From positions 101,875-165,874 of the forward strand of contig JBBSVM010000006.1 of NCBI GenBank assembly GCA_038046785.1: DNA of 64,000 bases, in the 5' to 3' direction. A program made the position numbers and the translations under genes. This document shows, piece by piece, positions 1-45,537 of this stretch (position 1 is the stretch's first letter; each line of letters starts with the position of its first letter). The notes under the pieces were generated by a model. It saw only the letters and a program-made list of their open reading frames with translations, was not told where the DNA came from and did no database searches. The stretch is from Thermoplasmatota archaeon. GTDB lineage: Archaea > Thermoplasmatota > E2 > JACPAO01 > JAHFTW01.

Positions 1-234
1 TTGGTAGTTGGCAACTAGGACGTTGAGGTCTTGGCCGCGACTCACATCCGCAAGGTAGAGCGCCATGATTTCCCGCTCAGCACCTTGGACCTCTGCCGTT
101 TCCAGGCGGGCTTGGAGTGTTGCCAGGAGGTCCCGTTTGGTCTCCGGCTCGGATTGCGCCATGTGGTTGGCGAGCGCTTCCGCTTGCGATGCTTCCGGTT
201 GTTCACCGGCGATGTCGCCGAGGGCGTCCTTCAT
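1..234 (-). CDS. hypothetical protein, N-terminal part (gene continues past window start)
   Basis: ATG at 234-232 on the minus strand overlaps the stop of the upstream gene (ATGA). It reads MKDALGDIAGEQPEASQAEALANHMAQSEPETKRDLLATLQARLETAEVQGAEREIMALYLADV... to the window edge, with no stop in the window. Confidence 0.4.
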   Translation of the reverse strand, partial: MKDALGDIAGEQPEASQAEALANHMAQSEPETKRDLLATLQARLETAEVQGAEREIMALYLADVSRGQDLNVLVANYQ

Positions 235-950
235 GCGCGGCGCACCTCGAGGAGTCGGCGGCGCACGATGATGAACAGGATGGCGCCGAGGACCAGGAAC
301 GCTTGGAGGTCTTGCGGGATGAAGCGGTAGACGTCACCGCCAATTCCAGAACCGAGTTGGATGCCAGTGTAGAGGCTGAGGACGACGAAGGGGATGACGT
401 TCGTGCTCGATTCGACTTGGGTCTCCAGGCGGGCGGCGATGTTGGGATGGAAGATTTGCGCGGTGTGGCCGACGTTCTGGTTCTCGGCAAGCGCTCGCAC
501 CAGCACCATCGTGTCCACCGTGCTCACTCCGGCGCTGAGCAGTTCGGTCTGGAGTTTCTGGGCGCCGGGAAGGTTGGGACCGGTGCCGCCGCCAGGTTTC
601 GTAGTGGTGGCGAGGGCGGTGGCTTTGTTGAGGAAGGTGCCCCATCCTTCCAGGACCGCTTGGAGGGGGAGTTCTGCGTAGGCGGCGCCGACGCGGGCGA
701 AGTAGCGTAGCGTGATGGGGGACTGGCCGACCGCTTCGCGGGCGTTGGCCCAGCGCCTCGCCATGCGTCGTGGCAAGGGGGCAAGGTCGAGGAGGGCGGT
801 GAAGTCGCGCAGGGTCGTGGGAGACCACTGTCCGTTGTCTTTGACGTAGTTGGGGTGTCCGTCGAGGTCGAAATTGTAGTAGCCGTCGGCGTGCCGGATG
901 GGCACGACGATGACGGCGTTGCCGCGTTGGACGAAAGCGTAGTCGTTCAT
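231..950 (-). CDS. hypothetical protein, 239 aa, C-terminal TM anchor followed by RRR
   Basis: ORF track. C-terminus LVLGAILFIIVRRRLLEVRRA is a hydrophobic helix plus basic tail. It is coupled 3 nt downstream of the previous gene. Confidence 0.55.
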   Translation of the reverse strand: MNDYAFVQRGNAVIVVPIRHADGYYNFDLDGHPNYVKDNGQWSPTTLRDFTALLDLAPLPRRMARRWANAREAVGQSPITLRYFARVGAAYAELPLQAVLEGWGTFLNKATALATTTKPGGGTGPNLPGAQKLQTELLSAGVSTVDTMVLVRALAENQNVGHTAQIFHPNIAARLETQVESSTNVIPFVVLSLYTGIQLGSGIGGDVYRFIPQDLQAFLVLGAILFIIVRRRLLEVRRA

Positions 951-953
951 GGT

Positions 954-1655
954 TCACCAGGGTTTGTTCTTGGATCGGGGTCGTTGTCCGATGAGGTAGG
1001 CGAGAAGTGCGCCGCCGCCAACGAGGCCGTAGGTGACAAGTTTCTGTTGTTGCGTGGCGGGGGGCGTGGCTGAAGTTGAATTGGCGGCCGGTTGCGGCTC
1101 CTCGTGGAAGGCCGCGACCTGATTAGGCGCCTGAAGAAGGACATCTCGCAGGAGTGTGCTTCCGTCCTGGCCACCTTGACTTGCGACGACCTCTCCGAAT
1201 CGTCCCTCGCAGGCGTCTGCCTCGCAGCGCACGGTGAAGCGGCAGGTCTGGATGTAGGGGATGGTGGTGTTGGCGTCGCGGACGCCGCAGACGACGGGGG
1301 CGGGGAGGGTGGCCTCGAAGCAGGAGGGCGGAAGGCAGGTCGGAATTGAGTTGTCTGCCTCGCGCATGGTGATTCCGAGTTGGGTGAACGTGCTCGCTGC
1401 AAAGGCACTCCCGTTGCCGAGTGCGGGGTCGACTTCGCCGAGACCGCCTGCGGTAACGCTCGCATTGTCGGCTTGGCCGGCAACGTCGCCCAAGGCGCCA
1501 CGAGCAAGCAGGGTGACGTTCATCTGGATGGGCAGGTCAATCTCGAGGACGTATCCGGGTCCAATCGGAAGAGTGGCGGGAGGAAATTCGGGCGGTGCCT
1601 GCGCCGTGGCTGCGGCCAACAAGAACAGAGCTGTGATGGGGACGATGCGGTTCAT
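954..1655 (-). CDS. secreted, C-terminally membrane-anchored protein, 234 aa
   Basis: Internal Met150 of ORF 954..2102. Signal peptide MNRIVPITALFLLAAATAQA and C-terminal TM LVGGGALLAYLIGQRPRSK. Its ATG overlaps the stop of the 1209-aa gene (ATGA). Confidence 0.6.
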   Translation of the reverse strand: MNRIVPITALFLLAAATAQAPPEFPPATLPIGPGYVLEIDLPIQMNVTLLARGALGDVAGQADNASVTAGGLGEVDPALGNGSAFAASTFTQLGITMREADNSIPTCLPPSCFEATLPAPVVCGVRDANTTIPYIQTCRFTVRCEADACEGRFGEVVASQGGQDGSTLLRDVLLQAPNQVAAFHEEPQPAANSTSATPPATQQQKLVTYGLVGGGALLAYLIGQRPRSKNKPW

Positions 1656-4600
1656 CGTCGCACCCTCCCAGTCGTGTAGCCGCCTGCGACGATGGCGGCG
1701 ATGAGAAGCCACCAGGGCCAGTTCTGCTTGTTCTCCTCGAACCATTTCCCAGCATCGAAACTCGTGATGCTGGAATTGGTGGAGTTGGTGGCGGGTGGTG
1801 CGCTCGTTGGCCTTTGGACGAGGGTGACGTTGGGCTGAGACGTCCGTAGGAGATTTTGCCAGGGGTCGTTGTCGTCGAGGTCGCCCACGGCGCCAAGCGC
1901 TGTGTCGGCGCGGCGTTGGCAGCCAGTCGTGACGTTCTCTACGAGGGTGCCAACTGTTGTGGCATAGCAGCGGTAGTTGTGGAGGCAGGGTTTGACGACG
2001 GGGATGCCGTCGTGGTCGCGGTCCTCGATGGTGCAGACGGCGGGGGCGATGAGGTCGAGGTAGCCGACACACGATGTCTGGTTCTGAGCCTGTTGGGCGC
2101 AAGTTTGCGCTTGCTCAGTGACGTTGTTGGCTTGCGGCGTCTCGTTGCTGGGGATTGCCTGGGTAGTTTGAAGGGCGAGAGGGACGGGCGGGGATGGTTT
2201 CTTGCCGATGCGGTAGAAGTCGGCGTCTTTGCTGGTGGCTGCGTTCTGATTGTAGGATGCGTCGGCCGTCTGGAGAGACATCCAACTTTGATTAGCAACA
2301 TCATAGACGCTTGCGCCGGTAGCGTAGCGTGCGTAGACGTAGTCGAGCTGAGGCGTGGTTCGGACGACGTAGGTTTGGATGCCGCACCAAGGCAATGAGA
2401 TCGTCTTGGTGGCGGCTCCATCGCGGATGGTCAGAGTACAGGCTGCGTTGCGAGCTTGGATGTGATGCTGTGGGTCCACGATGAAGTAGGGACCGAGGGT
2501 GGAGTCGAGTGTCGGAGCAGCGGCGATTGTGTCGTTCGCGGCCACAAGGGCGTGGAGACCGCTTGCGAGCTGCACGTACGCATTGTGATTGTAGTCGACC
2601 TCCAAGGCCAGGGTTGGACGAGAATCGAGGAAGGGCACGCAGGTGGTGACGTGGCAGCGTTGGATGGCCTGGGCGCGTCTTGTGGGCTGTTGGTCCAGCA
2701 AGACTTCCTCGGGTGTGCTTGGGCGCGTGATGTCGCTTCTGACGTAGATGTGGTCGCCGTCGACCCAGGCAAGCCCTGTTGGGGCTTGGATGCCGGTGGC
2801 GTATGTGCGAATGGCGCCATCTTGGTTGCGGGTTTTGACTTCGCCTTGATTGGAGAGGTAGGCATACTGGCCTTCGAGGCCCTGGTTGACGAAGGTGGCG
2901 GTTTCGTGGTTGACGTTGCTTGTGCGCGCGCCGGCAAGGTTGGCGGTGGATGAGGTCATGACCTCGTAGGTGGGTTCGTCGAGGAAGCGAATGTCCTGAA
3001 AGCCGGAACTGAAGTCAGCTGCCTCCCAGATGCTTCCGTCGAACGTGTAGGCGCGGTTGTTGCGGTACTCGACGGCCACGAACGGGACCTGGATGACCTT
3101 GAACGCAACTTTGCGCTGTGACGTCAGGCCATTGGTGTACGTGGCCTTGTAGACCACCTCATTGACCCGCGGCAACGTGTCCGCTTGAACTTCGCATCGC
3201 AAGGTCGTGGTCGAGCTGGAGCATGCCTGGATTCCGTTGATGCTGGCGTTGAGGCTCCGAAGGGCCAGGTTGGGATGAAGAATGGAGGCATCCAGGGGGA
3301 CGATGGAGTCTTTCAGGAAAGCTTCCATCGGATTGGGTGAACGTAGGGTCCACGTCGGCGCGACATCGGCGATGATGTTTTGCACGACGGACGTTGGCCT
3401 CGGTAAGTGCCCGCGTGTCGTCCACGCCTCCTGTGAGTGTTTTCGTTCGTAGACTGCGTTGTCGATGCCGACCAAGAACTGCCCCTGGACATCGTCCGTG
3501 CAGGAGTGGATCGTCAGCTCGTTGGGCATCCTTGGGATGATTGTGAGGGTGCCGTCGCGGATTCGGATGGTGCTGTCGCGAAGGCCAATGTCGACGCCTT
3601 TTGGTCCAATTTCAAAGCATGGCCCATACAGGGTCGGGATGCTTGCTCGTGCGTCGAGTTGAAGGGTCGGCCACGGTCCTACGCGGGTTAGCGTGCCGTT
3701 GTGCTCAATCCGGTACAGTCCGAGCAGGCCGTTGTTGTCGGCGGGAGCGTATGCGGAGTCCGAAGCGTAATCTACGTAGACTCCGGCGAGGGCTTTTCCA
3801 AGCCCGGGTCCTTCCCGGATGGCTCCGAAATCCCAGATGGATGAGCTGCCTTGCCTGCACACCAATGCGTGCGTGCCCCAGAACTTGGTGGGTGAGAACT
3901 CGGTTGCATTGGACCACGTGGTTGCGGGACAAAGTGATCGGAAGGGGTTCGTGTGGACGAATGGCTGGCGTTCACCTTCGAGGTTGACGACTTGGTCTTG
4001 GTGGGATGCCTGTCCGCGAAACACGTACCGGGTGGGGTCCATCCAGTAGTAGCCGGTGGCGGTGCTTGGGTGGGGGATCCATTCGAACCCGGTCCAGAAT
4101 CCCTTGGCGGCAATGGCTTGTTTCCCATTCGTTTTGATGGAATCGTTGGGAAGGTCTTCGTGGTAGTTGGGGCTTCGGATGCGGGAGTCCTGCTGGACGT
4201 ACCCGCCGATTCCCGAGCGGGTTGCATACGTGGTCAAGGTTGTGGGGGTGGGTCCCGGTGAAAGTTTGAGGTCGCCGGCTGCGAGGCCGAGGAATACGGC
4301 GTCGCTTGAGAGCGGCGTGACGATTCCGGCGGGCGTGATTCGGAAGAAGATTCCGTTGAGTTCGGGGGTTCCGCCGAGGAAGCTCAGCACGAGGCCGTCT
4401 TGATCCTGGAGGGCGCCGGCGAAGATGGGGTGCGTCGCGGGTGCTGTGATTGTTGCGAGGCGCTCTGATGCGCTCCAGATTTCGAGGTTGCCGGGCGTGC
4501 TTGTTGGGGCGTAGAGGAAAGAACGAGTTAGGGGAAACAAGCCAAAGGGCTCGACAGGTGGGTACGTCGTCGTTGTGAGGGTTTCAATGTCGAGGACGCC

Positions 4601-5281
4601 CCTTCCTGTTTGATGGTGGTAGAGTGCGACGTGTCGTCCTGCATGCGGTCCCGTGAGGGGGAAACTCTGCTGGAAACCGCCGTTGATGTTGCCGCTCAAG
4701 CTTGTTGCGCGAAGCTGGCCCTCGCCCATGAGGAACATTGTGCGCGCGGGTGCAGTACCTTGGAGAAGCGCATGGCCATCCCCGACGTACCAGGGGGCAA
4801 AATTGCGCGTTGCCGTCTGGAACAAGGTGCTGTTGGTCTTGTTCCAGATGCATGCCGCGTATTCGGGGCTCGGGATATTGTCGACGCTTCCTCCGACGTA
4901 GATGTAGTCACGGTCTTCAACGATTCCAGGCAAGTTCTGGAAACTCCATTTCTTGAATGCGGGGAAATCAGAGTAGCATGTGCGGGTCCTTGCCAAGCCG
5001 TTCTCAATTGTGTAAATGTGGAGATTTCTTCCGTCGGCAAAATGGGCCTGCACCTGGACTTCACTGGTCGCGTTGAGTGTAGCGGAGCCTACACCTTGTC
5101 CAAGCAGCGGGACGCCGAGGTATGGGGCGTGGCCGGCAACCTCCCCTTGCGCCTCGCTTTGGCGGTCTAGGAATTGAAGGTAATCCGGGGCAGGCTCTAC
5201 GATAGCGTAATTGGGCGCTGTTGACAGTCCGCCAGCGATTGGCAGGAGAAGGATTGCAAGGGCAAGATAGATTCGTGGCAT
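1652..5281 (-). CDS. giant secreted cell-surface protein, 1209 aa, C-terminal TM anchor
   Basis: ORF track. N-terminal signal peptide MPRIYLALAILLLPIAGG and C-terminal WWLLIAAIVAGGYTTGRVRR. The long Gly/Thr-rich extracellular region has no recognisable catalytic motif. Confidence 0.7.
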   Translation of the reverse strand: MPRIYLALAILLLPIAGGLSTAPNYAIVEPAPDYLQFLDRQSEAQGEVAGHAPYLGVPLLGQGVGSATLNATSEVQVQAHFADGRNLHIYTIENGLARTRTCYSDFPAFKKWSFQNLPGIVEDRDYIYVGGSVDNIPSPEYAACIWNKTNSTLFQTATRNFAPWYVGDGHALLQGTAPARTMFLMGEGQLRATSLSGNINGGFQQSFPLTGPHAGRHVALYHHQTGRGVLDIETLTTTTYPPVEPFGLFPLTRSFLYAPTSTPGNLEIWSASERLATITAPATHPIFAGALQDQDGLVLSFLGGTPELNGIFFRITPAGIVTPLSSDAVFLGLAAGDLKLSPGPTPTTLTTYATRSGIGGYVQQDSRIRSPNYHEDLPNDSIKTNGKQAIAAKGFWTGFEWIPHPSTATGYYWMDPTRYVFRGQASHQDQVVNLEGERQPFVHTNPFRSLCPATTWSNATEFSPTKFWGTHALVCRQGSSSIWDFGAIREGPGLGKALAGVYVDYASDSAYAPADNNGLLGLYRIEHNGTLTRVGPWPTLQLDARASIPTLYGPCFEIGPKGVDIGLRDSTIRIRDGTLTIIPRMPNELTIHSCTDDVQGQFLVGIDNAVYERKHSQEAWTTRGHLPRPTSVVQNIIADVAPTWTLRSPNPMEAFLKDSIVPLDASILHPNLALRSLNASINGIQACSSSTTTLRCEVQADTLPRVNEVVYKATYTNGLTSQRKVAFKVIQVPFVAVEYRNNRAYTFDGSIWEAADFSSGFQDIRFLDEPTYEVMTSSTANLAGARTSNVNHETATFVNQGLEGQYAYLSNQGEVKTRNQDGAIRTYATGIQAPTGLAWVDGDHIYVRSDITRPSTPEEVLLDQQPTRRAQAIQRCHVTTCVPFLDSRPTLALEVDYNHNAYVQLASGLHALVAANDTIAAAPTLDSTLGPYFIVDPQHHIQARNAACTLTIRDGAATKTISLPWCGIQTYVVRTTPQLDYVYARYATGASVYDVANQSWMSLQTADASYNQNAATSKDADFYRIGKKPSPPVPLALQTTQAIPSNETPQANNVTEQAQTCAQQAQNQTSCVGYLDLIAPAVCTIEDRDHDGIPVVKPCLHNYRCYATTVGTLVENVTTGCQRRADTALGAVGDLDDNDPWQNLLRTSQPNVTLVQRPTSAPPATNSTNSSITSFDAGKWFEENKQNWPWWLLIAAIVAGGYTTGRVRR

Positions 5282-5380
5282 TGACGCTCCTTTGTTGAGG
5301 TTGGAGTTGGTTGGCCTCCGCAGCGTTGCCGCTACGGGTGGTCGTAAGGGTTGGAAGAGGGGTGGAGGGGTTGAGGGGGT

Positions 5381-5590
5381 TCAGCGGCGTGGTTTGCCAA
5401 CACCGCGCGCGTAGGTCCACCATGCGGCCCAGGTTGCGCTGCCGGCGCCGAAACTGGCGAGCAGGAGCACGACGAGGGGGAGGAACAGGTTCCGCATCGC
5501 CATGCCTGCCGCGAGCGCGACGAGGAGGGCGAGGACGAAGCCGTTGAGCTGCTTGCGCGGCTCGATGCGGACGTCGAGGTTGCGGGCCAT
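5381..5590 (-). CDS. small two-TM membrane protein, 69 aa
   Basis: Internal Met of ORF 5381..5848, MARNLDV... with two hydrophobic helices. It sits 4 nt downstream of the previous gene. Confidence 0.4.
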   Translation of the reverse strand: MARNLDVRIEPRKQLNGFVLALLVALAAGMAMRNLFLPLVVLLLASFGAGSATWAAWWTYARGVGKPRR

Positions 5591-5594
5591 GCTC

Positions 5595-6110
5595 TCACAA
5601 GTTGATGGTGGTGGTTCCGAGTTCGGCGTCGATGATGCGGATCGCATCACCCGCGTCGTGGGCGAGGTAGTCCACTTGGACGAGTCCTGCTTGACCGCGC
5701 TGCAGCTCCTTCGTGAAGGCGACGAGGCCGTCGGGCAGGATGACTTGCAGTTTGACGCCGGTGACGCCGTAGCTGGTGAAGCTTGCCTGGTAGCCGGTGG
5801 CTTGCGGGTTGACGAAGCTGGGGCCGATGTGGGTGTAGGCGTCGCCATCGAAGCTGAGGAAGGCGCGCTTGTAGCTGCCCGTCGGAGCTTGCGTTCGTGT
5901 CAGGTCGGTGACGCAGCCGACGGGGTCTTTCTGGGCGCGTTTGAGGAGCCCGTCGAGGAATCCGGTCGAGCAGGGCACCTCGTCGGGCTGCCCGTTGGGG
6001 GGAGTCGCGGTGTCGTCGTCCTTGTCGGTGGCTTTGACGCCGGCGTAGGTGGCTCCGCCCGCGCCGAGGATGGCGAGGGCGACGAGGAGCGCGGTGGCTT
6101 TGCTGTCCAT
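5595..6110 (-). CDS. secreted protein, 171 aa
   Basis: Internal Met96 of ORF 5595..6395. Signal peptide MDSKATALLVALAILGAGGATYA. Its ATG overlaps the stop of the upstream lipoprotein gene. Confidence 0.55.
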   Translation of the reverse strand: MDSKATALLVALAILGAGGATYAGVKATDKDDDTATPPNGQPDEVPCSTGFLDGLLKRAQKDPVGCVTDLTRTQAPTGSYKRAFLSFDGDAYTHIGPSFVNPQATGYQASFTSYGVTGVKLQVILPDGLVAFTKELQRGQAGLVQVDYLAHDAGDAIRIIDAELGTTTINL

Positions 6111-6658
6111 CAGAACCACCCTTGCTTGGTGAGCTTGAATTCGCTGGTGCTGTGGCCGGGGTCGGGTTTGGGGCTGTAGGGCAGCCACCACGGGTTGTTG
6201 TCGTTCTGGTTCTCGAATTGGAAGTCGAGGAGGTAGGCGCCGAAGCCGCTCGCGGTGCTCCACTTGAAGGTCGCCTTGAACGTGCTCGTCTCGTCCTTCT
6301 CGACGCCCACGTTGATGCTCATGGGAGCCGAGTTGCCGTGGTTGCCGGGGTAGTACACGGTGGTGGTGATGGTGCCACGTCGGTTCCAGAACCAACTCGT
6401 TGCTTGGTCGGGATCCTCATACTTGGCCTCGCTCTCGTCGAGTTTGCCATCCTCCAACTTGCCGGAGTCACAATCGACGAGGCTGGCGTGGAAGCCCTCC
6501 GTGCCGTCCAGCTTGAAGTTGCAGATGACGGTGAGGTGCTTCGCCTTGAGCTGCTCGACGGTAAGGCCGGTCTCAGCACCTTTGGGTTTGACGCTGGGTC
6601 CGGCGCAGCCTGCGAAGAGCAGGGTGGCCACGAGGGCGATGGCGAGGAGGGGTTTCAT
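6110..6658 (-). CDS. lipoprotein, 182 aa
   Basis: ORF track. MKPLLAIALVATLLFAGCAG is a lipobox-like signal. It overlaps its neighbours at both ends. Confidence 0.6.
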   Translation of the reverse strand: MKPLLAIALVATLLFAGCAGPSVKPKGAETGLTVEQLKAKHLTVICNFKLDGTEGFHASLVDCDSGKLEDGKLDESEAKYEDPDQATSWFWNRRGTITTTVYYPGNHGNSAPMSINVGVEKDETSTFKATFKWSTASGFGAYLLDFQFENQNDNNPWWLPYSPKPDPGHSTSEFKLTKQGWF

Positions 6659-8901
6659 GGGGCACCTCGGCGGCGGGGTTGGCTGCGCCGTTGCGCCCGG
6701 TCGAGCCGCCCCTGCGTCCGCTTGGCCTGCCGTGTCGGGTCCTTGCGCTTGTCTTGCACGCGCTGGATGACGAGGTAGGCGACGAGGGCGAGCGTGAGAA
6801 GGCCGACGATGCTCTCGGCTTTGTTGTTGTTGAACCAGTCGAGGGCGTTGTTGCCGGTGCCCGACTCCATCGTGTATTCTTGGCCCGCTTTGCCACCGGG
6901 GGCGGGGGCTTGTCCCGTGCCGGTGGCCGGTTGGTAGCCCTGCTTGGTGAGCGTCACGGTGTATTGGCTCAATGCGCTGATGGGCAGCGTCGCGTAGCCG
7001 TTCGTGTTGGTCGTGGAGGTCGAGCTGGTCTTGCTGATGCCAAACAGGTCCGAGGAATCCACTTGGACGGCGACCTCCTTGAGTCCTTGGCTGAGATAGC
7101 CAGTGCTTGAGCCGCCGACGGCGCGGATGGTGAGTTGGCTCATGGCGCCGATGGGGGCTTGCTGCAGCACGCTGAGAGGGACCGTTGCGATGGCGGTGCC
7201 GACGGCGTTGGTGAGCGCCGCGACGACGCCCTGGCTGGCGCCCATTGGGATGATGGTGGCGGCGTTGGGCATGGCGGGGGCCTGCATGCCTTCGTAGATG
7301 CCGTCGAGCACGTTCAGGTCATGGTCGGGGAGGCAGCTGCCTTTGCATCCGACATCCTTGAGGGCGCTCGGGTTGGGTCCGTCGATGCCGGGGATGGCGC
7401 CGATGCCTTCGCTGGGCAGTTTCCATTTCCCGAAGCTTGGCAGGGTGGGGCCGAAACCGACGACGCCACCGAGTTTGGTTCCGTCGTGTGGAATGGGCGG
7501 GAGGTCCTTGAGGAGGCCGGTATCGGTCCCTTTGAGGACACCGTTGAAGCTGCCAAGCGGGCTTGTCGTTCCGAGGAGATTCTTGAACTTGCCCGCGTCG
7601 CCGAGGTTGCGCACGACGCTTGCCATCTTGGGGGTGACTTCGAGGGCGCCGGGTGTGAAGCACATGGCGTTCTTGGTTGCGGCGTTGAGGTTGTTCTTGC
7701 AGACGGCCGGTGTCGGCACGATGCTGGTGTCGATGCCGGTCTTGGCAAGCTCGTCGAACTTGGCGAGGTTTTCGCGGTAGTTCCCGAGCGTGGAGTCGAA
7801 GCGGATGCCGCCGGCCACTTGACGCGTTGCATCGAGTTGGGAGAGGTAGCTGAAGTGCGTGGGGTTGGTGCTGCTTGCGCTTTTGAGGGCGGTGATGAGG
7901 TTGTTGTCGGCCACCATGCTCACCGGGTCCGAGAGGAGGACGATCTTGCCGAAGCCGCCATCCACGAGGATGAGCTGCTTGTTGGCGGTGTCGAGGATGG
8001 TCTTCGGGTCCGGGTTGGGCAGCGTCACGGTGCGGGTTGCGTAGCCGAGCGTTGCCATGTTGGCTCCGAGGGCGGTTGTGTCGAGGGAGCCGATAGCTTT
8101 CGTCGCCGTGCTGAGGGCGCCAAGCAGGTGGTTGAGGTCCAAATCGGTGAGCGTCTTGGCGTCCAGCATGGACTTGATGCCGGAGGCGGTGGTCGCGAGC
8201 GTGTCGGTGGTGGGGACCTGTGTGGTGGCGCTGGTGAGTGTTCCGAGGACGAGGTTGTCGTCCGGATCAATCGCCATGAGTTTCGTGACGGGTGCCAGCG
8301 CGTCGGTGACGCAGAATCGTTCGGCCGCGATGCTGGTGGTGGGCGGCTTCTGGATGCTGGCGGGGTTCTGGAAGAGCTTGCCCGCCTCGGGGGCAACCTC
8401 AAGCGTGGATTGGACGGCGCCCCAGACGTTGAGGGTGGCGGTGACGACGTCGCGCGGGTTGAAGCTCGTTGCCGGGTCGAGGCTCGGCTGGGTTCCGGCG
8501 CGCTGGATGGTCATCGTGACGGGGGTCAGGAAGACGGTGAAATCGTAGAGTCCGTCCGTTCCGCCAGCGGTTGCGTCGAGGGGTGGCAGGTTGAGGCTGC
8601 GCACCGTACCGGGTCCGACGATGGTTGCGTTCAATTTGCCGGCACTTCCCATGGCGATGAGGAGCGGGTTCTTGGCGAAGTTGACGACCATGCTCTGGGC
8701 GGGGGCGAGGCCGCTGACTGCCATTTTGAGGACGCAGCCGAGTTCGGCGTCGGCGAGTGTAGGGTTTGGCGGGACGACGGCGGGTGGGTCGGGCTCGAAC
8801 CCGGCCCAACCCGAGCCGGGGTTGGCGATGTCTTTCGGGGCTGGACCGGCCGCCACGAGGGGGGCCAGCAGCAGTAGGGCGAGTGCGATGTGTGTTTTCA
8901 T
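6655..8901 (-). CDS. large secreted spike/surface protein, 749 aa, C-terminal TM anchor plus basic tail
   Basis: Internal Met138 of ORF 6655..9312. Signal peptide MKTHIALALLLLAPLVAAG. C-terminal segment GYATLPISALSQYTVTLTKQGYQP resembles a carboxypeptidase-regulatory-like beta-sandwich, followed by TM IVGLLTLALVAYLVI and an Arg/Lys tail. Its ATG overlaps the upstream stop. Confidence 0.65.
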   Translation of the reverse strand: MKTHIALALLLLAPLVAAGPAPKDIANPGSGWAGFEPDPPAVVPPNPTLADAELGCVLKMAVSGLAPAQSMVVNFAKNPLLIAMGSAGKLNATIVGPGTVRSLNLPPLDATAGGTDGLYDFTVFLTPVTMTIQRAGTQPSLDPATSFNPRDVVTATLNVWGAVQSTLEVAPEAGKLFQNPASIQKPPTTSIAAERFCVTDALAPVTKLMAIDPDDNLVLGTLTSATTQVPTTDTLATTASGIKSMLDAKTLTDLDLNHLLGALSTATKAIGSLDTTALGANMATLGYATRTVTLPNPDPKTILDTANKQLILVDGGFGKIVLLSDPVSMVADNNLITALKSASSTNPTHFSYLSQLDATRQVAGGIRFDSTLGNYRENLAKFDELAKTGIDTSIVPTPAVCKNNLNAATKNAMCFTPGALEVTPKMASVVRNLGDAGKFKNLLGTTSPLGSFNGVLKGTDTGLLKDLPPIPHDGTKLGGVVGFGPTLPSFGKWKLPSEGIGAIPGIDGPNPSALKDVGCKGSCLPDHDLNVLDGIYEGMQAPAMPNAATIIPMGASQGVVAALTNAVGTAIATVPLSVLQQAPIGAMSQLTIRAVGGSSTGYLSQGLKEVAVQVDSSDLFGISKTSSTSTTNTNGYATLPISALSQYTVTLTKQGYQPATGTGQAPAPGGKAGQEYTMESGTGNNALDWFNNNKAESIVGLLTLALVAYLVIQRVQDKRKDPTRQAKRTQGRLDRAQRRSQPRRRGAP

Positions 8902-9128
8902 GTGGGTTCTCCGGGGTTGGGTCGCACGGGGCGGCCCAGCAGAATGGCAAGGGTGGCAGCCGAGGTGGCGGCGAGGATGGCGGGGAGCCATTGCCGGGTG
9001 ACGGCGAGGTAGAGGGAGAGGACGGCGAGGGCGTAGAGGAGGATGTAGTCGGCGAGTCCCTTGACGCGGCGGGCTCGCCGGTTGCGTCGGCGTTCTTCGT
9101 GGAGGATGCCGTAGAGGTGCAAGCTCAT
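8898..9128 (-). CDS. small membrane protein, 76 aa
   Basis: Internal Met of ORF 8898..9488, MSLHLYGILHEERRRNRRARRVKGLADYILLYALAVLSLYLAV... It has ATGA overlaps on both sides. Confidence 0.4.
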   Translation of the reverse strand: MSLHLYGILHEERRRNRRARRVKGLADYILLYALAVLSLYLAVTRQWLPAILAATSAATLAILLGRPVRPNPGEPT

Positions 9129-9433
9129 CGTTTCCTCCGGACGAGTTTGGTGGCGCCAATGGCGGAGCGGGCGGGCAGGGTTCCGGCCTTGACTGCGATG
9201 CCGATGAGTTGGGCGCCGAACTGGATGGCAAGGAAGGCGATGACGGCGAGGGGGAGGGCAAGGAAGCCGAAGAGCCAGCTGCGCCGGAAACTGATGTACA
9301 CCACTGCGCCAAGGGCGAGGGCGAGCAGGGTTTTGTGCGGCAGGCTGACCTTCACAGGTTGGCCTCCCAGTTGAGTTCGCCATCGAGTTGGGGAACATGG
9401 ACGGGGTCGAGGATAGTGTAGAGGTGGGTCCAA
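9125..9433 (-). CDS. small membrane protein (about 77-102 aa; start uncertain, possibly GTG near 9355)
   Basis: ORF track. Two TM helices, LLALALGAVVYISF and FLALPLAVIAFLAIQFGAQLIGIAV. Confidence 0.35.
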   Translation of the reverse strand: MDPPLHYPRPRPCSPTRWRTQLGGQPVKVSLPHKTLLALALGAVVYISFRRSWLFGFLALPLAVIAFLAIQFGAQLIGIAVKAGTLPARSAIGATKLVRRKR

Positions 9434-9549
9434 TCGCCAGCAGCGCGGGTGCTTGGCGGGAGCTTGTGGGTTGCGCAGGGTTCCTCATTCTGGCAGCGCC
9501 ACCAGCCTGAACCGGTTGCGCAGTGTCGGAGGTAAATGCATTGGGTCAT
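9352..9549 (-). CDS. Cys-rich mini-protein, 65 aa (four Cys, possible zinc ribbon)
   Basis: ORF track. MTQCIYLRHCATGSGWWRCQNEEPCATHK. Its start abuts the stop of the upstream 288-aa gene. Confidence 0.4.
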   Translation of the reverse strand: MTQCIYLRHCATGSGWWRCQNEEPCATHKLPPSTRAAGDWTHLYTILDPVHVPQLDGELNWEANL

Positions 9550-10416
9550 TCAGGTTCTCCTTGGGTTCCACCGGTTGCGGGTGCCGCGCTGGTGATGGGC
9601 GCGTTCGACATGGTTGCCGGGCCTGGGCTGGAATCGGCTCGGGTGGAAGTAGGCCAGGATGCCGAGGTTGAACCAGCCCTGGTTGGCGGCGCTGGCGGCA
9701 TTGGCGCTGCGACCGCTCCTGCGTTGTCGAAGGACGCGGTGGGCGGTGGGGTAGACGGCGTCGGCATCGTCGTCGCGCACGAAGCTGGCGGTGGCGAGGA
9801 TGCCGCGTCGAAAATGGTCGAAGGGGCGAAAGCGGCCATGATCGGGTGGGACATGGCTGTCCAGGTCGCCGCGGTCGGTCTTGCGCTTGAGGCCGGCAAT
9901 GCGGGTGGCGTTGTTGCGGCGGGCGCGTTCGTCGGGGTTCCAGATCTGGTCAATCGCGGCGCGGGCGGTGCGTGGTGCGTTGCTTTTGGGGAAAAGTTGT
10001 GCGCGCAAGCCTTGGTTGTAGACGTACGCTTCGAGCGCCCAGGGGGAGCGTTTCCAGAGGGCGTACGGGTTGCGGATGGTTCCGGGCGCGCCCGGCTTCT
10101 TGAGGCGGTGATAGACCTGCGGGGGTGTCGCTTGGTTGAGGCGTTGGCGGGTCGGGTCGCGGCGCACGTCGTCGCCGGGTCCGTACGGGGTGCCGTCGCG
10201 CAGCTCGCGGATCTCTTGGCTGCGGGCGGGTCGGCCGACGCGGTGCGTGGCCGTGGGGAATTGGCGACGTGGGTGGACGACGGTGTGTTCGCCGAGCCGT
10301 TCGTTGCCTCGTCCGGGTTCGCGGGCTGCGTCATGGCTCGCCTGGAGGGCGGCCAGCGCGTCGCGGCGGGCTGCGGCGTAGCGCCGCTCCAGAGGCGACG
10401 GCTGGCCGTTGGCCAT
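9550..10416 (-). CDS. highly basic (Arg-rich) protein, 288 aa, unknown function
   Basis: ORF track. Third codon positions are about 85% G/C, as expected for a true frame in this genome. There is Y/W/F/N diversity between the Arg runs. It overlaps the upstream gene by 1 nt. Confidence 0.55.
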   Translation of the reverse strand: MANGQPSPLERRYAAARRDALAALQASHDAAREPGRGNERLGEHTVVHPRRQFPTATHRVGRPARSQEIRELRDGTPYGPGDDVRRDPTRQRLNQATPPQVYHRLKKPGAPGTIRNPYALWKRSPWALEAYVYNQGLRAQLFPKSNAPRTARAAIDQIWNPDERARRNNATRIAGLKRKTDRGDLDSHVPPDHGRFRPFDHFRRGILATASFVRDDDADAVYPTAHRVLRQRRSGRSANAASAANQGWFNLGILAYFHPSRFQPRPGNHVERAHHQRGTRNRWNPRRT

Positions 10417-10925
10417 CAGCGGAACCTCCGGCGGAAACGATTGCCAGTGCGGCGTTCGTAGCTGGACTTGACGCGCTCGACGCGGCCGGGGTTGGCGCGG
10501 TCGAAGTCGCTTGCGTTGCGGCGGCGCTGGTTCTTGCCTTCCGTGTAGCGCTGGATGTTGCTGCGGCGCGCGTTGGCTTGTTCCTGGGTGCGGTAGCGGC
10601 GTTGGGCCGCCGCTTGGACTTCAGGGCTGACGCGAACGTTGGGATCGGGGCCTTTGCGAGCACCGAGCGCCTTGGCCTGGGCGTCGAACTTCTCCGCGAG
10701 GGGCTTGTTGCCGGCGACCCATGCGCCTTTGGCGGCACCCATCTTGAAGGCGCGCTTGTAGGCGAGGTTGAAGCTGGCGGCGAAGCTGCGTGCCTTCCCG
10801 GTCTTGAGGGGTTTGACCTGGATGGTGCGGTAGGGTTTGCCGGAGAGACCTTCGAGGAAGCCGCTGCGGCTTCCTTGGAAGGCGCCGCCTTTTGCTTGTT
10901 TGGGGTTGGGGCTGGGTTGCGTCAT
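10416..10925 (-). CDS. highly basic protein, 169 aa, unknown function
   Basis: ORF track. MTQPSPNPKQAKGGAFQGSRSGFLEGLSGKPYRTIQVKPLK...RRRFR. It is Lys/Arg-rich throughout, suggesting a nucleic-acid-binding protein. Confidence 0.55.
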   Translation of the reverse strand: MTQPSPNPKQAKGGAFQGSRSGFLEGLSGKPYRTIQVKPLKTGKARSFAASFNLAYKRAFKMGAAKGAWVAGNKPLAEKFDAQAKALGARKGPDPNVRVSPEVQAAAQRRYRTQEQANARRSNIQRYTEGKNQRRRNASDFDRANPGRVERVKSSYERRTGNRFRRRFR

Positions 10926-10988
10926 GTCAGTCTGCCTCCTCTTCGTCGAGGAGGATTGTGTAGAGATGGAGGGCGTCGCCGAAGTCGT

Positions 10989-11732
10989 TCATCGGGGCAC
11001 CACCGCTTCGACGTCGATGATGTCGCCTTCGCGCACGATAGCGGGGCCGCCGTTGGGGGCGCGTAGTGCGCGTAGGCGGAGCGTCTCGCGTTCGGGGGCG
11101 GCGTTGCGGTCGTGCAGGGCGAGGTAGGCGTCGTCGGCATCGCGACGCGCGTTCTCGTCCCTGTGGGTGTCCTCTGCGGGCGGGGGAGTTTGCTCGGTGC
11201 GGTGGCGGTTGCGGATGAGGGTCACGAGCAGCGCCGCGCAGAGGATGAGTTGGAGTGCCATGGTGGCGGTGGTGGGGTTGGCGCCAAGTTGGGTTCCTTG
11301 GGCGGCGAGGTCGGCGCGTTCGACGGCGGTGGCGAGGCTGGCTTCGCTTTGGTCGCCGGCTTTCACGATGCGGGACTCGATGCTGGCGAGTTTGCTGGCG
11401 AGGGCGGCAACGCTGGATGCCATGGTGGCGACGTCGGCGGTGAGGTTGGCTTGGTCGGAGCGCAAGGTTGCCAGGGCGGATTCGTCGCTGATGTCGCGCA
11501 ACTCAACCCAGGCGAGACGAGCTGTGCCGTTCTGGACGATGCGCAGGCCGACCGGTTCGCTGTTCGTGGAGCGCAGGATGGCGATGTTGCCGCCGTCAAA
11601 GGCAAGGAGTGTTGCGTTGATGGGGCGGCTGTAGGCGGCGACGGCCTCGCCGGGTTGCAGTTCGGCCATGCCCTGGTAGGTGGCGGCTGAGGCGATGGGA
11701 ACGAGAATGAGGGCGGCGAGGAGGAGACGCAT
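10989..11732 (-). CDS. secreted coiled-coil protein with TM and cytoplasmic tail, 247 aa
   Basis: Internal Met77 of ORF 10989..11960. Signal peptide MRLLLAALILVPIASAATYQG. An Ala/Leu-rich coiled-coil segment, a TM LQLILCAALLVTLI and an acidic C-terminal tail. Confidence 0.6.
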   Translation of the reverse strand: MRLLLAALILVPIASAATYQGMAELQPGEAVAAYSRPINATLLAFDGGNIAILRSTNSEPVGLRIVQNGTARLAWVELRDISDESALATLRSDQANLTADVATMASSVAALASKLASIESRIVKAGDQSEASLATAVERADLAAQGTQLGANPTTATMALQLILCAALLVTLIRNRHRTEQTPPPAEDTHRDENARRDADDAYLALHDRNAAPERETLRLRALRAPNGGPAIVREGDIIDVEAVVPR

Positions 11733-11734
11733 GG

Positions 11735-11980
11735 CTACTCCTCCTTGACCACGAAGTAGCGGCGTTCGCGTCCGACGGTCTCGACGCTCACCACTTTGCG
11801 TTGGAGGAGGCGTCGGCAGTGCCGGTGGATGGTCTGATGGGAGGGTGCGCGGACCTCCGGGCCGTACTCGTTGCGAAGGGCGCGGATGGTGAGGCCGGGG
11901 GGTTTGCGGGGCAGCCGGTGGAGGATGCTGCTTCGGAATCCTGTCATGGACCCAACGCATTGGCCGAGGGGCTTAAGCAA
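11735..11980 (-). CDS. small winged-helix DNA-binding protein (70-81 aa)
   Basis: ORF track. ...LTIRALRNEYGPEVRAPSHQTIHRHCRRLLQRKVVSVE is wHTH-like. It is the first gene of the minus-strand block. Confidence 0.5.
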   Translation of the reverse strand: MLKPLGQCVGSMTGFRSSILHRLPRKPPGLTIRALRNEYGPEVRAPSHQTIHRHCRRLLQRKVVSVETVGRERRYFVVKEE

Positions 11981-12255
11981 GTCCCAAACAGTGGAGTGAA
12001 ACTACTCCGAAAGTAGCACAATGGTTGGCCTTGCGAGGAACGCACCGGCCCCTGCGCTTTCGTTGCGGACGGCAACGATGACTCCGCGTTCCGGCTCCGC
12101 TTCGCTGCGCAAACGGAACGCGGGTCAACGTTGCGCCTGGCGGCGTTCCCGTCCTGCACTTTCGCTATGGGGCCGGTGCTGGGCGCCTTCGGCGCGGCGG
12201 GGCTGCGCCCCCGAGTGGGGGCGAAGGGGCGCAAGCGTTCCTTCAAGGTGAACCC

Positions 12256-12387
12256 ATGAAAAACAAGCAAGCACGAGAAGCATACCTTGCGACCCTTGCC
12301 CACTGCAGCCACTGCGACCGCGCCGGCCTCGACGGCCAACTCGGCAACTGCGTCCACTGCGGACTCCTACCCCAGGTGACTGCATGA
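12256..12387 (+). CDS. zinc-ribbon mini-protein, 43 aa (CxxC...CxxC)
   Basis: Read directly: ATGAAAAACAAGCAAGCACGA... encodes MKNKQAREAYLATLAHCSHCDRAGLDGQLGNCVHCGLLPQVTA. Its TGA overlaps the ATG of the next gene. It is below the ORF-track length cutoff. Confidence 0.45.
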   Translation: MKNKQAREAYLATLAHCSHCDRAGLDGQLGNCVHCGLLPQVTA

Positions 12388-12911
12388 TTGGCAACCTGCG
12401 GCCCGGAAGCGAGGCGCGACGCATCCGAATCATCGATGCACTCCAAGCACGCCCTGGTTCAACCTTCCGCGATCTGGCTCGAACCACTGGATTCGCCGTC
12501 GGCATCCTGGCGCACCACCTCAGCGTCTTGCGGAGACAGCGACGAGTCATTGACGAATCGTTTGGGCAACGACGTGTCATTCGGTTGGCCGCCGAGAGGC
12601 GGACGGCCCCCGAACTCGTGGTGGCGCGAGACTCCCGATTGCGCGCGATGGTGGAGCGAATCGGCGCCGGAACTTGGACTCAAAAGCAGCTCCTCGACCT
12701 GTCGTCCGACCCCCGATCAACGACGCAATGGACGCTCCACCGCCTCCACGCTTTGGGCATCATCACCCAGCAGCGCCAGGGCCGTTACCTGGTCATCCGC
12801 CGCGCGCAAGCCATCCCCCAACCCACGTTCACCAACTTCATCGAGCCGCTGCACGACCTGGTGCTGCGGCATGAGTCTGCGACCCTACACGCCGAGGGAG
12901 TGGTCGCGTGA
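12384..12911 (+). CDS. winged-helix (ArsR-like) transcriptional regulator, 175 aa
   Basis: ORF track. RIRIIDALQARPGSTFRDLARTTGFAVGILAHHLSVLRRQRRV is an HTH. Confidence 0.65.
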   Translation: MIGNLRPGSEARRIRIIDALQARPGSTFRDLARTTGFAVGILAHHLSVLRRQRRVIDESFGQRRVIRLAAERRTAPELVVARDSRLRAMVERIGAGTWTQKQLLDLSSDPRSTTQWTLHRLHALGIITQQRQGRYLVIRRAQAIPQPTFTNFIEPLHDLVLRHESATLHAEGVVA

Positions 12912-13327
12912 GCACTCTCTACACCATGTTCTCCAGCCTCGCGCCAGGTTTGCGGGCAATGGAAGCGGGAACCACGCTCCGTTCAACGAGTCCGCCCTAC
13001 ATGGACCTCGTCGGTGAAGTTCTGGAACGTTCCGCCGATGGCCGGGTTCAACGCGTGAGCCTCGCGCACTACTACGAGCAGAACGGCGACCTGATGGCCG
13101 ATCCAGAGATGGAGTTCCGGGTCGTCCACCCCTCGACTTCAGGTCCGGGGATGCTCGTGCCCCTCCATTACAAGCAGGACGGGCTGGGCATTTTCCGGCC
13201 CACGCACGGTCCCGGCGTGGTGTATCCGAAGCAGCTGAAGGAGCAGGTGAAGTTCACGCGGTTCTGGCTACGGAACTTGAAGAGCCAGGGCCACCGGCTC
13301 AACCGAGGAACCGTGCCCAATTCGTAG
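12908..13327 (+). CDS. hypothetical protein, 139 aa
   Basis: ORF track. ATGA overlap with the upstream regulator. No motif recognised. Confidence 0.55.
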   Translation: MSTLYTMFSSLAPGLRAMEAGTTLRSTSPPYMDLVGEVLERSADGRVQRVSLAHYYEQNGDLMADPEMEFRVVHPSTSGPGMLVPLHYKQDGLGIFRPTHGPGVVYPKQLKEQVKFTRFWLRNLKSQGHRLNRGTVPNS

Positions 13328-13619: not shown

Positions 13620-15356
13620 CTACAGCGGGTGCGCCTTGCTGGCTCGTCCGTCCGTTCCGAAGCCGAACTGGCCGCATACGCCGTAGGATTTGTCGAGGTT
13701 GTGCAGGGAGAGAATCTCGTCAAACGATGAGAAGTGGTCCACTTTCATCGTCACCGTTAGGTCCGTGAGCGCGGCGGAGCCGGTGGTGCGGACGGTCCAG
13801 TTTCCTTCGGCCGCATCCTGGGCGATGCCGGGTCCGGAGAGTAGGTAGGTGCCTTTGAGGTTGGGCTGCATGGGGTCGCCGGTTCGGCCGAGCATTAGGG
13901 TGGACTGGATGTTGCCGGCGGCGTCGATGACTTCGGTCTTCAGTTCGCTGGCGCGAGCGCCCGTTCCCGACAGGAACGCTTCGACCTCGATGGTGTTCAC
14001 CGAGCAGGGCATGCGGACGGGGAAGGTGAACTCGACTTGGGCGGGAGCAAGTGGCGCTGGGGCGCCGGTGACCGCCGGGGGGACGCCGAGGCTCGCCAGC
14101 TCGGTGTCGCTGTAGTCGCTCGGGATGTAGACTGGTTCTTGGTAGCCGATGCCGCCTGCCAATTCGGCGGGGAACGCATCACCGTGGCCTTCGAAATCGG
14201 CTCCGACGGTGAACTTGGTGTGCATGCCGCCGGGGCTCTGCTGGTCGTTGGCTTCGTGGTTGTTGACGTGGGTGTGGAAGACCCATGCGCCTTGGTTGTG
14301 GCCGATGATGAGGACATCGTAGCGCTCGGAGGGGCTGATGGCGAGCGTGTCCACCCAGTAGGGATCGGCGAGGGGAAGGCCGTCTTTGTGCGTGACGAGC
14401 ATGTCTTGGCCATGGGGGTGCAGGACCTCCTCGGTCTGGCCCGCGTTCAGGATGCGCAAACGCAACCGTTCCCCATCTTGGAGCGTCCAATGGCTCTGTT
14501 TTTGCTGGATGGTGTACGGGAAGGCGTGGCCGTTGAGGAGGAAGACGTCCGGCGTCGTGTCGAGGACCGGGTTGGCGCAGCCTGACGTGCCGGACACCAA
14601 GCAGCCGGGCGGGTGGGCGTGCGGGTTGATGCCAGGGATGGTCTCGACGATGTTGCGGGCCGCCGTCGAGAGCACCATGACGCCCTCTTGATCCACTTCG
14701 GGTTCGCGGCTGGTGTCCTGCGGCTCCACGATGAACATGCCGTACAGCCCCTGCATGACGTGGAACTGGGTGTCGACGTGGCAGTGGTACCAGAGCGTGC
14801 CGGGCTTCTTGGCGATGAAATCGTAGGTGATGCTGGGTGCGCCGCTGCCGCCACCGACGGCTTGTTGCGTGACGCCGGGCACGCCGTCGTCCTCGTTGTC
14901 CACGAATTGGCCGTGCCAGTGAATCGTGTGGGGGTGGAAGTGGGCGTGGGCGAACTCGACGACGATGCGGTCGCCTTGCTTGGCGCGGATGGTGGGGCCC
15001 GGGACGCTGCATGCGCTGCGTTCCCCTTCGCTGAGTTGGGGTGCGTCGGTGGGCAGGGGGTCGAAGTATTCGATGGCGGCCTTCGAGTAGGCATCGTTCT
15101 GGTCGAAGGGTTCAGCGCAGAACGCCCACAGATTCGCGCGCAGACCGGGGCTCGTTGTGCCGTCCCGGTTGCTGACTGGGTAGAGTTCGGTGTTGAAGAG
15201 GTCCACGACTTTCATCTTGAGGCGGATGGTGTTGCCAGTCTCCGGGACGTCGAAGTCGCCCGTGGGGGCGAACGGGTTTGCGCCCATGCATCCGGAGAGG
15301 GGGATGAGGAGGCTGACCAGGGCAATGACGGGAATGCGGGACGTGGCAGCAGGCAT
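13620..15356 (-). CDS. multicopper oxidase lipoprotein, 578 aa, with extra C-terminal domain
   Basis: ORF track. Lipobox LSGC. Copper-site motifs HPHTIHWHG and WYHCHVDTQFHVMQGLYG in the N-terminal domain. HPHGQDMLVTH and FHTHVNNHE in the second domain. Confidence 0.9.
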   Translation of the reverse strand: MPAATSRIPVIALVSLLIPLSGCMGANPFAPTGDFDVPETGNTIRLKMKVVDLFNTELYPVSNRDGTTSPGLRANLWAFCAEPFDQNDAYSKAAIEYFDPLPTDAPQLSEGERSACSVPGPTIRAKQGDRIVVEFAHAHFHPHTIHWHGQFVDNEDDGVPGVTQQAVGGGSGAPSITYDFIAKKPGTLWYHCHVDTQFHVMQGLYGMFIVEPQDTSREPEVDQEGVMVLSTAARNIVETIPGINPHAHPPGCLVSGTSGCANPVLDTTPDVFLLNGHAFPYTIQQKQSHWTLQDGERLRLRILNAGQTEEVLHPHGQDMLVTHKDGLPLADPYWVDTLAISPSERYDVLIIGHNQGAWVFHTHVNNHEANDQQSPGGMHTKFTVGADFEGHGDAFPAELAGGIGYQEPVYIPSDYSDTELASLGVPPAVTGAPAPLAPAQVEFTFPVRMPCSVNTIEVEAFLSGTGARASELKTEVIDAAGNIQSTLMLGRTGDPMQPNLKGTYLLSGPGIAQDAAEGNWTVRTTGSAALTDLTVTMKVDHFSSFDEILSLHNLDKSYGVCGQFGFGTDGRASKAHPL

Positions 15357-19334: not shown

Positions 19335-19425
19335 AGCCCCTCTTCAACGGTTGGCGGGTATAGCGGCTGTGCTAACTGGGGCGCCCAGGTTTCATAATGG
19401 ACCAACCTCTTCTCAGTTCCAATCT

Positions 19426-21974: not shown

Positions 21975-21988
21975 AGGGGCTCACTTGT

Positions 21989-43212: not shown

Positions 43213-43233
43213 GGCTGCACTCCCTCTTATGTG

Positions 43234-45504: not shown

Positions 45505-45537
45505 CCAGGATAACAGGAAAGGACCTGGCGTAGGTCA

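Follow-up and report, generated by a model that had tools for sequence, protein, structure and literature searches.

A membrane-protein operon in a Thermoplasmatota archaeon lies in a probable integrated mobile element with a gene layout like that of pleolipovirus-like viruses

Pleolipovirus-like proviruses, the described systems closest in architecture to the locus considered here, combine a small membrane protein, an anchored spike, a nucleoside triphosphatase (NTPase) and a replication initiator (Rep) and/or an integrase within 7–18 kb, and occur in Halobacteria, Archaeoglobi and Methanomassiliicoccales (PMC10919331). A further initiator family, Rep-Arvir (DUF7845), was described recently for SNJ2 and PAV1 (PMC13107129). 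In Thermoplasmatota, which are abundant archaea, almost no proviruses have been detected, and a 2026 survey of 5041 Thermoplasmatota and 2275 Nanobdellota genomes reported no more than 30 provirus regions for the two groups together (PMC13573593). Here we analysed a stretch of 64,000 nucleotides (nt) from a Thermoplasmatota archaeon (assembly GCA_038046785.1, contig JBBSVM010000006.1, positions 101,875 to 165,874; hereafter the window), the left part of which is filled by a block of minus-strand genes rich in membrane and secreted proteins. This block very probably makes up most of a ~17-kb integrated mobile element, and we lean towards reading it as the structural and membrane module of a temperate, enveloped, capsid-less, pleolipovirus-like virus of an undescribed lineage.

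An operon that runs into replication and integration genes

Gene calling on the window and on an overlapping contig, L001, found 15 minus-strand genes in an unbroken row from position 11947 down to position 1 (g01 to g14, including g06b, which occupies an apparent gap of 223 nt; Table 1). Neighbouring genes overlap by 4 or 1 nt, abut, or stand 2 to 4 nt apart, the exceptions being the g02/g03 junction, with a spacer of 63 nt, and the g10/g11 junction, with one of 99 nt, and Shine-Dalgarno-like GGAGG or GGAG motifs precede most of the start codons. A signal peptide or transmembrane helix was predicted in 10 of the 15 proteins, and no metabolic enzyme was found among them in Pfam and NCBIfam scans. 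A previous reading of the window made from its letters alone (the sequence-only reading) had counted at least 15 consecutive genes joined by tight overlaps or short gaps, with spacers of ~60 and ~100 nt, and had listed virion-like proteins; layout and protein features hold, and the one protein given as 749 amino acids (aa) has 748.

The operon does not end with the window. L001, a 15,241-bp Logan contig (run ERR3858122) reached through an exact match to g11, is identical to window positions 1–11388 (0 mismatches) and reaches 3.85 kb further left, where the row of genes continues through the remainder of g14 into an NTPase and a Rep and is met by a convergent integrase. The operon as a whole comprises 17 genes, which encode in turn a winged helix-turn-helix (wHTH) protein, 13 products that are mostly secreted or reside in the membrane, the g14 protein, the P-loop NTPase and the Rep with its HUH fold. 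The sequence-only reading had reported neither NTPase or ATPase nor Rep, and was mistaken in this because the window's edge falls just short of them.

The Rep has 25 homologues (37–52% identity), all unannotated and none with a Pfam domain, which gives a family of 26 members. Its invariant residues include H171, D173, Y244, R247 and E248, with H169 nearly invariant, and it carries an N-terminal four-Cys cluster and a C-terminal H/CxCxxC cluster. Its fold neighbours are HUH enzymes, with TrwC, Vientovirus Rep, TnpA(REP), IS200/IS605 transposases and geminivirus Rep lower in the list. The protein shows the HUH nuclease fold, the HUH metal-binding motif and the catalytic Tyr, and we conclude that it is an HUH-superfamily initiator of rolling-circle replication whose family is absent from Pfam. 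An assignment to Rep-Arvir (PF25227/DUF7845) was rejected, as there was no Pfam match at E < 0.1 and structural similarity points to HUH enzymes instead of Rep_trans.

The NTPase carries a Walker A motif (GPTGMGKS) and a Walker B motif (VLDE), and has an ASCE fold; its best viral structural neighbours in BFVD are ATV ORF286 and AMDV2_16, the latter from an acid-mine-drainage archaeal virus, with low TM-scores (0.34/0.43). The integrase is a tyrosine recombinase that matched Pfam PF00589 (Phage_integrase) at E 9e-15 and PHROG integrases (families 216 and 1) at 1.7e-15, and in its translation HDFRHS and YIHL motifs can be seen by eye. L001 ends in 46 nt, beginning 26 nt away from the start codon of the integrase, that resemble, again by eye, the 5' half of a tRNA, with the anticodon GCG in the standard register and 32 of 46 positions identical to the tRNA-Pro of a related element, L019. 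ARAGORN and Rfam left this fragment, which is too short for either, uncalled; it is probably the 5' half of a tRNA-Arg.

Just upstream of the tRNA 5' end, L001 also bears a 14-mer, GCACCAAAGAGAGA (15166–15195 region), a shorter form of which, CACCAAAGAGAGAC, lies upstream of the tRNA in another related element, L020 (~9740–9762). This motif was rejected as element-specific, having a single further copy in host DNA at window 50979–50992, where GGGCCC recurs a few bases on (50979–51075). The motif may lie close to the promoters of stable-RNA genes in this lineage and would then point to a small RNA that lacks annotation at 50979–51075, where Rfam gave nothing credible.

Relatives in unrelated genomic contexts

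Relatives of the NTPase, the Rep or the g07 protein were found on ~20 contigs, of which those with a named source all come from Thermoplasmatota. In the GTDB species genomes (185,579 scanned), relatives of NTPase and Rep occur at six loci, five labelled Thermoplasmatota or Thermoplasmata and one "bacterium", and more lie on many Logan, ENA and JGI metagenome contigs. A single Thermoplasmata metagenome-assembled genome (MAG), BP_742, holds two differing NTPase-bearing elements, L010 (JAXDQU010000079) and L011 (JAXDQU010000078), in which the integrase stands beside a tRNA-Arg and a tRNA-Ser, respectively. Direct abutment of integrase and tRNA was seen in L010 (Arg-TCT), L011 (Ser-GGA) and L020 (Arg-CCT); a tRNA-Pro follows Rep in L019 and L028, and a tRNA-Thr precedes the element in L021. 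The flanks differ among L008, L010, L011, L019, L020, L021 and the window, which places these elements in different genomic contexts, with a response regulator and ribosomal L44e/S27e genes beside L019, rhomboid/PLD and MazE/PIN genes beside L020, Topo VI beside L021 and a metal-resistance island in the window.

Since the operon runs on into genes for the NTPase and the HUH Rep and meets a tyrosine integrase by a probable tRNA, and since its relatives occur in unrelated contexts, the block is best read as part of a mobile element. The sequence-only reading had proposed a provirus or mobile module and had asked for related blocks at differing loci. Such blocks were found, in unrelated contexts and with the gene order kept in L022–L025, and the mobile part of the proposal is strongly upheld by integrase, tRNA, unrelated contexts and the two elements of one MAG; that the element also makes virions is an inference.

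BLAST between related elements detected NTPase, Rep and integrase and nothing else, and a word-indexed search with g07 returned the self match alone; exhaustive HMMER against 1.84 billion representative proteins found 11 homologues of g07 (28–46% identity, most of them full-length and two partial; alignment A4), which shows that a blank indexed search does not make an orphan. The gene order of the window recurs in L022–L025, where a relative of g02 is followed by genes for small transmembrane proteins and then by g07, g08 and g09. L023–L025 also have a g11-family gene and g13, to which L023 adds a g04-like gene, a g10-like gene and a weak match to g14, and L024 and L025 end in an NTPase (hhalign probability to the NTPase family 98.5–98.9%). 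L027 carries g07, a g11-like gene, NTPase and Rep. Thus at least eight membrane-protein families, mostly accompanied by the NTPase, keep their order at 25–39% identity on contigs from five separate samples, which is the pattern of an essential morphogenetic module. The recurrence of g02, g04, g07–g10, g11/g12 and g13 homologues in a conserved order on independent metagenomic contigs shows that the open reading frames (ORFs) of the block are real genes. In L024 and L025 the NTPase stands behind the membrane-protein genes with no relative of Rep after it, which suggests that the NTPase belongs to the morphogenetic module, like pleolipovirus VP8.

Some further features of the relatives deserve mention. 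In L024 the slot after the NTPase holds a 369-aa protein (11271–12380) with an hhalign probability of 0.1% to the Rep family; its motifs follow, by eye, the order seen in Rep (Cys cluster, ALHVSMTLP, KYHIDGV, Tyr-containing segments), and it may be a very distant HUH Rep. Relatives bear defence or anti-defence cargo: genes for a DUF4357 protein, an N6/N4 methyltransferase, a ResIII helicase, HEPN and NYN/OST-HTH in L022 (2891–8047 and 13456–14798) and an ArdC-N/MPTase-PolyVal antirestriction-type gene in L023 (348–1250). In L010 (17573–17740), a second copy of the last 18 nt of the tRNA-Arg(TCT), AATCCCGCCGCGCTCGCT, lies 103 nt downstream and a partial one 150 nt downstream, as if a different insertion into the 3' end of this tRNA had left an att scar.

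Gene features, right border and neighbouring DNA

The coordinates of the element's features and of the adjoining metal-resistance genes are collected in Table 1.

Table 1 Features of the element, its left extension on contig L001 and the metal-resistance island to its right (window coordinates unless L001 is named).
Feature	Coordinates	Strand	Description
Left extension	L001 11155–15241		Remainder of g14, 383-aa NTPase and 364-aa Rep on the block strand; convergent 442-aa integrase; probable tRNA-Arg 5' half
g14	234 to beyond window start	-	145-aa acidic soluble protein; 5' part inside the window
g13	231–950	-	239 aa; soluble N-terminal domain, two C-terminal transmembrane helices
g12	954–1655	-	233 aa; signal peptide, 6 Cys, 5 N-glycosylation sequons, C-terminal anchor; clusters with the g11 family
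g11	1652–5281	-	1209 aa; secreted and anchored, 18 Cys, 16 N-glycosylation sequons
g10	5381–5590	-	69 aa, basic, two hydrophobic helices; homologue in L023; candidate small virion membrane protein
g09	5595–6110	-	171 aa; N-terminal signal/anchor; homologues directly after the g08 homologue in L022–L025
g08	6110–6658	-	182-aa lipoprotein, lipobox LFAGC; homologues in L022–L025 (30–39% identity) directly after the g07 homologue
g07	6655–8901	-	748 aa; signal peptide, large ectodomain, transmembrane anchor, basic tail
g06b	8898–9128	-	76 aa; basic N terminus, then two hydrophobic helices; called on L001 2261–2491
g06	9125–9355	-	76 aa; two hydrophobic helices, basic tail
g05	9352–9549	-	65 aa, 4 Cys
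g04	9550–10416	-	288 aa, isoelectric point (pI) 11.6; homologue in L023 (30% identity); candidate DNA-binding/condensing protein
g03	10416–10925	-	169 aa, basic, pI 11.7
g02	10989–11732	-	247 aa; signal peptide, helical coiled-coil-like segment, transmembrane helix; family at the head of the block in L022–L025
g01	11735–11947	-	70 aa, basic winged-helix protein, first gene of the operon; weak Pfam wHTH matches (Penicillinase_R, MarR_2)
Hairpin	12075–12132		In the divergent intergenic region
CMACTGCR x4	12300–12361	+	62 nt, arranged as two pairs
d2	12384–12911	+	175-aa winged-helix regulator, HVO_0163_N/ArsR-type (Pfam), divergent from the block
d3	12908–13327	+	139-aa DUF6908 protein (Pfam PF21849, E 9e-29), coupled to d2
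Multicopper oxidase	13620–15356		Metal island
ZIP transporter	16912–18468		Metal island
CDF transporter	18297–19343		Metal island
NikR-like regulator	21600–21980		Metal island
Multicopper oxidase	27235–29001		Metal island
HMA-domain P-type ATPase	40204–43233		Metal island
HMA-domain P-type ATPase	43234–45534		Metal island
CopC/CopD fusion	46781–48469		Metal island

Two of the anchored proteins stand out by their size. The g07 protein is the main candidate for a spike or fusogen; its residues 609–677 gave a weak match to a CarboxypepD_reg-like beta-sandwich. The g11 protein, for which Pfam, PHROG, NCBIfam and PDB gave no match, may be a large glycoprotein and is the second spike or adhesin candidate; members of its family on L023, L024, L025 and L027 have 556–840 aa. 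Homologues of g13 (25–27% identity) occupy the equivalent position in L023, L024 and L025.

On the right, homologues of d2 lie beside related elements in L003, L019, L021 and L022, so the element reaches at least to 12911. Its right end is probably at 13327, with d3 as the last gene, and from ~13299 onward an ArsR-like gene and a multicopper oxidase have the look of host metal-resistance genes. The element would then extend from the probable tRNA-Arg gene, ~3.8 kb left of the window, to ~13300. For the divergent cassette that the sequence-only reading had placed at 12256..13327, the helix-turn-helix gene proved right (d2) and the gene it had called unknown encodes the DUF6908 protein (d3). The 436-nt divergent intergenic region, between g01 and d2, holds a stable hairpin (DNA fold -20.7 kcal/mol, z = -5.2) that none of 200 shuffles equalled and that may act as a replication origin (a double-strand origin) or in regulation. 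It also holds four of the 14 window-wide matches to CMACTGCR, where ~0.014 would be expected in 62 nt (estimated from the shuffle mean, 14.6 matches per 64,000 nt); these are candidate operator or iteron sites.

The window as a whole has a GC content of ~65%. A haloarchaeal origin was rejected on the grounds that its proteins are not acidic and that the contig is recorded as Thermoplasmatota, a placement with which an archaeal Hel308-type helicase encoded in the window agrees. Directly right of the element lies a ~35-kb heavy-metal resistance island (13620–48469), in whose second ATPase gene a 9/18-nt tandem repeat (45011–45078) falls within the part coding for a Met/Gly/His-rich stretch (MEGMEGMEG). 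Across positions 1–22000, where the minus strand carries most of the larger ORFs, the + strand has a strongly positive GC skew (+0.10 to +0.29), so the coding strand is C-rich in the element and in the adjacent metal-resistance genes. Further right, a low-GC patch (48559–50771; 0.57–0.60 against ~0.65) may be another piece of foreign DNA; its two minus-strand ORFs (319 and 428 aa) overlap each other and matched nothing in Pfam. A near-perfect palindrome at 50860–50890, GCGTTTCGCGCC...GGCGCGAAACGC, which drew spurious Rfam matches to microRNA families (E ~1e-4), is probably a terminator or other hairpin.

Viral and non-viral readings and comparison with known systems

Gene content and analogy with pleolipoviruses suggest how such an element might live as a temperate virus. 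The integrase would excise a ~17-kb circle at the tRNA-associated site, and Rep would nick an origin and drive rolling-circle replication, for which the hairpin near the four CMACTGCR sites is one candidate. Binding and condensing the genome DNA might fall to the basic g03 and g04, while g06, g06b and g10, together with the anchored g07 and g11, would enter the host membrane and give rise to an envelope with two spike species. Since no lysis genes were recognised, particles would be expected to bud without lysis; the NTPase might serve morphogenesis or genome loading, and g01 and the divergent d2 may govern the lysogeny switch.

Whether the element is a virus at all we consider evenly balanced, and a series of results weighs against it. 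Scans of all block proteins with Pfam, PHROGs and NCBIfam gave nothing past the weak wHTH and beta-sandwich matches, and no virion hallmark, capsid or fusogen was recognised in library scans or profile comparisons. NTPase, Rep and g07 had no tblastn match in deposited viruses, nor did the NTPase and Rep profiles match IMG/VR. Profile searches of PDB with NTPase, Rep, g07, g11, g04 and g13 yielded nothing meaningful. The g07 profile (10 sequences, A4) reached an hhalign probability of 1% against an alignment of VP4, the spike or fusogen with a V-shaped fold (PDB 6QGL), from HRPV1, HRPV6, HRPV9, His2, HRPV10 and AvPV1, against which g11 and the other block proteins were negative as well at the sequence level; no block protein exceeded 10% against alignments of ORF6, ORF7 or the internal membrane protein VP3 in single-sequence queries of limited sensitivity; and the NTPase, whose gene takes the place that VP8 has at the end of the pleolipovirus block, reached 37% against VP8, in the Walker A/B region alone. 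At the ends of the element, a search for att direct repeats in L001/window, L010, L011, L019, L020 and L021 returned chance-level 10–13-mers only, and no repeat of at least 12 nt joins the element's two ends, the sequence of L001 stopping within the probable tRNA; of the integrase, tRNA and att repeats that the sequence-only reading had told us to look for, the integrase and a probable tRNA half are thus there and the repeats were not found. A terminal-overlap test detected no circular contigs. The comparison of composition with the flanks, another of its proposals, showed a mildly atypical element (tetranucleotide z 2.2–3.1 at 148–8147, against a host maximum of 2.8). Finally, a non-viral integrative plasmid that carries surface proteins could have just such a set of genes.

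This last explanation is the strongest of the alternatives, and we regard it as plausible, though less likely than the viral reading. It holds that the element is an integrative plasmid or genomic island with a core of Rep, integrase and sometimes NTPase, and that the 11-kb block of membrane and secreted proteins is cargo which remodels the host surface (adhesion, exclusion, cell-cell contact, vesicle-mediated transfer) and makes no true virions. The Rep family does occur in small elements without large envelope-like genes or NTPase (L020, ~7 kb; L019, L021), as does the pairing of Rep with an integrase, relatives carry the plasmid-type accessory genes described above (ArdC-N in L023, restriction-modification and HEPN in L022), and the missing viral hallmarks and IMG/VR relatives speak for it too. 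Cargo is normally variable, however, whereas here at least eight membrane-protein families hold their order despite their divergence; moreover, no VirB4, VirD4 or relaxase was matched in Pfam and NCBIfam scans for conjugation genes, and tblastn against 72,556 plasmids found no match to NTPase or Rep.

A true member of the pleolipovirus assemblage (Pleolipoviridae or "Thalassapleoviridae"-like), with VP3, VP4 and NTPase diverged beyond sequence recognition, is improbable. The architecture is equal, from the small membrane proteins, the spike with signal peptide and C-terminal anchor, further membrane proteins and NTPase to a rolling-circle Rep, which alphapleolipoviruses also have, and an integrase, which SNJ2 and AvPV1 also have, AvPV1 having two spike-like genes as well, and VP4-like proviruses have already been reported in Methanomassiliicoccales, which belong to Thermoplasmatota (PMC10919331). 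Against this stand the VP4 comparison, which included AvPV1, and the VP3, ORF6 and ORF7 comparisons given above, the structural neighbours of the NTPase, which are ATV ORF286 and AMDV2_16 and not VP8, and the length of g07 and g11, well above the 486–584 aa of the VP4-type spikes compared. Because none of the defining proteins was recognised in the comparisons at the sequence level, membership in the pleolipoviruses is not supported, and the sequence-only reading was right that the canonical gene set is unrecognisable here. A core chromosomal surface-structure or envelope operon of the host, which the sequence-only reading had also offered, deserves very little credence: GC content and tetranucleotide usage are near those of the host and all products are of envelope type, but the operon ends in Rep and integrase by a probable tRNA, homologous blocks are rare and lie in unrelated contexts (11 g07 homologues in 1.84 billion proteins, NTPase on 6 contigs among 185,579 species genomes), and the lack of a conserved chromosomal position, which is the criterion that the sequence-only reading had set, refutes it.

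Returning to the viral reading, we propose tentatively that the element and its relatives on ~20 contigs form a new family-level lineage of enveloped, rolling-circle, temperate viruses of high-GC Thermoplasmatota, in which g07 and g11 would represent archaeal entry or fusion proteins of a new class with no relation to VP4 and the module would be either independent of that of pleolipoviruses or diverged from it beyond recognition. Standard virus finders rely on hallmark genes, which this element does not have. If it is a virus, the Rep family (N = 26), the NTPase family and the g07-g08-g09-g13 module would supply search profiles for a hidden lineage, the enveloped capsid-less lifestyle would extend further beyond halophiles and hyperthermophiles, and two large candidate fusogens or receptor-binding proteins would become available for structural study. 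Even as an integrative plasmid, it would add to the little-known mobilome of an archaeal phylum a mobile element associated with tRNA genes and a new family of HUH Reps in which zinc-binding clusters flank the nuclease.

Among other archaeal viruses, spindle viruses (PAV1, TPV1, His1, fusellovirus-like) have major capsid proteins that the 69–76-aa two-helix proteins resemble in size and hydrophobicity only, and they share with the element an integrase, regulators of the wHTH type, a P-loop ATPase and large proteins exposed at the surface. There was no PHROG or Pfam match to fusellovirus, His1 or PAV1 proteins, and g06, g06b and g10 did not match the two-helix capsid protein (SSV1 VP1/His1 VP21) in PHROG and Pfam, which were general scans with no dedicated profile comparison. 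PAV1 moreover uses Rep-Arvir (PMC13107129), and the element has no such protein. With respect to known HUH Reps (Helitron Helraiser, parvovirus NS1/Rep, SIRV1 ORF119, Rep_1-type), the Rep of the element matches no Pfam Rep family and differs in having an invariant Cys/His cluster on either side of the nuclease domain and a helicase-like NTPase encoded by a separate upstream gene, not by a fused superfamily 3 (SF3) domain.

Compared with pleolipoviruses, the element gave no detectable match in sequence or profile to VP3, VP4, ORF6, ORF7 or VP8 apart from the Walker region of the NTPase, its envelope proteins are much larger (748 and 1209 aa), its Rep falls outside both the alphapleolipovirus Rep family and Rep-Arvir (no Pfam match), and its hosts are high-GC, non-halophilic Thermoplasmatota. 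It also has two strongly basic proteins, and we know of no nucleoprotein in pleolipovirus virions. What it shares with pleolipovirus-like viruses (HRPV-1, SNJ2, AvPV1) is a similar size class (~17 kb against 7–18 kb), the absence of a recognisable capsid gene and a unidirectional series of small membrane proteins, a C-anchored spike-like protein, more membrane proteins and a P-loop NTPase, to which are added a second spike-like gene as in AvPV1 and His2, a rolling-circle Rep as in alphapleolipoviruses and, as in AvPV1, a tyrosine integrase near a tRNA gene.

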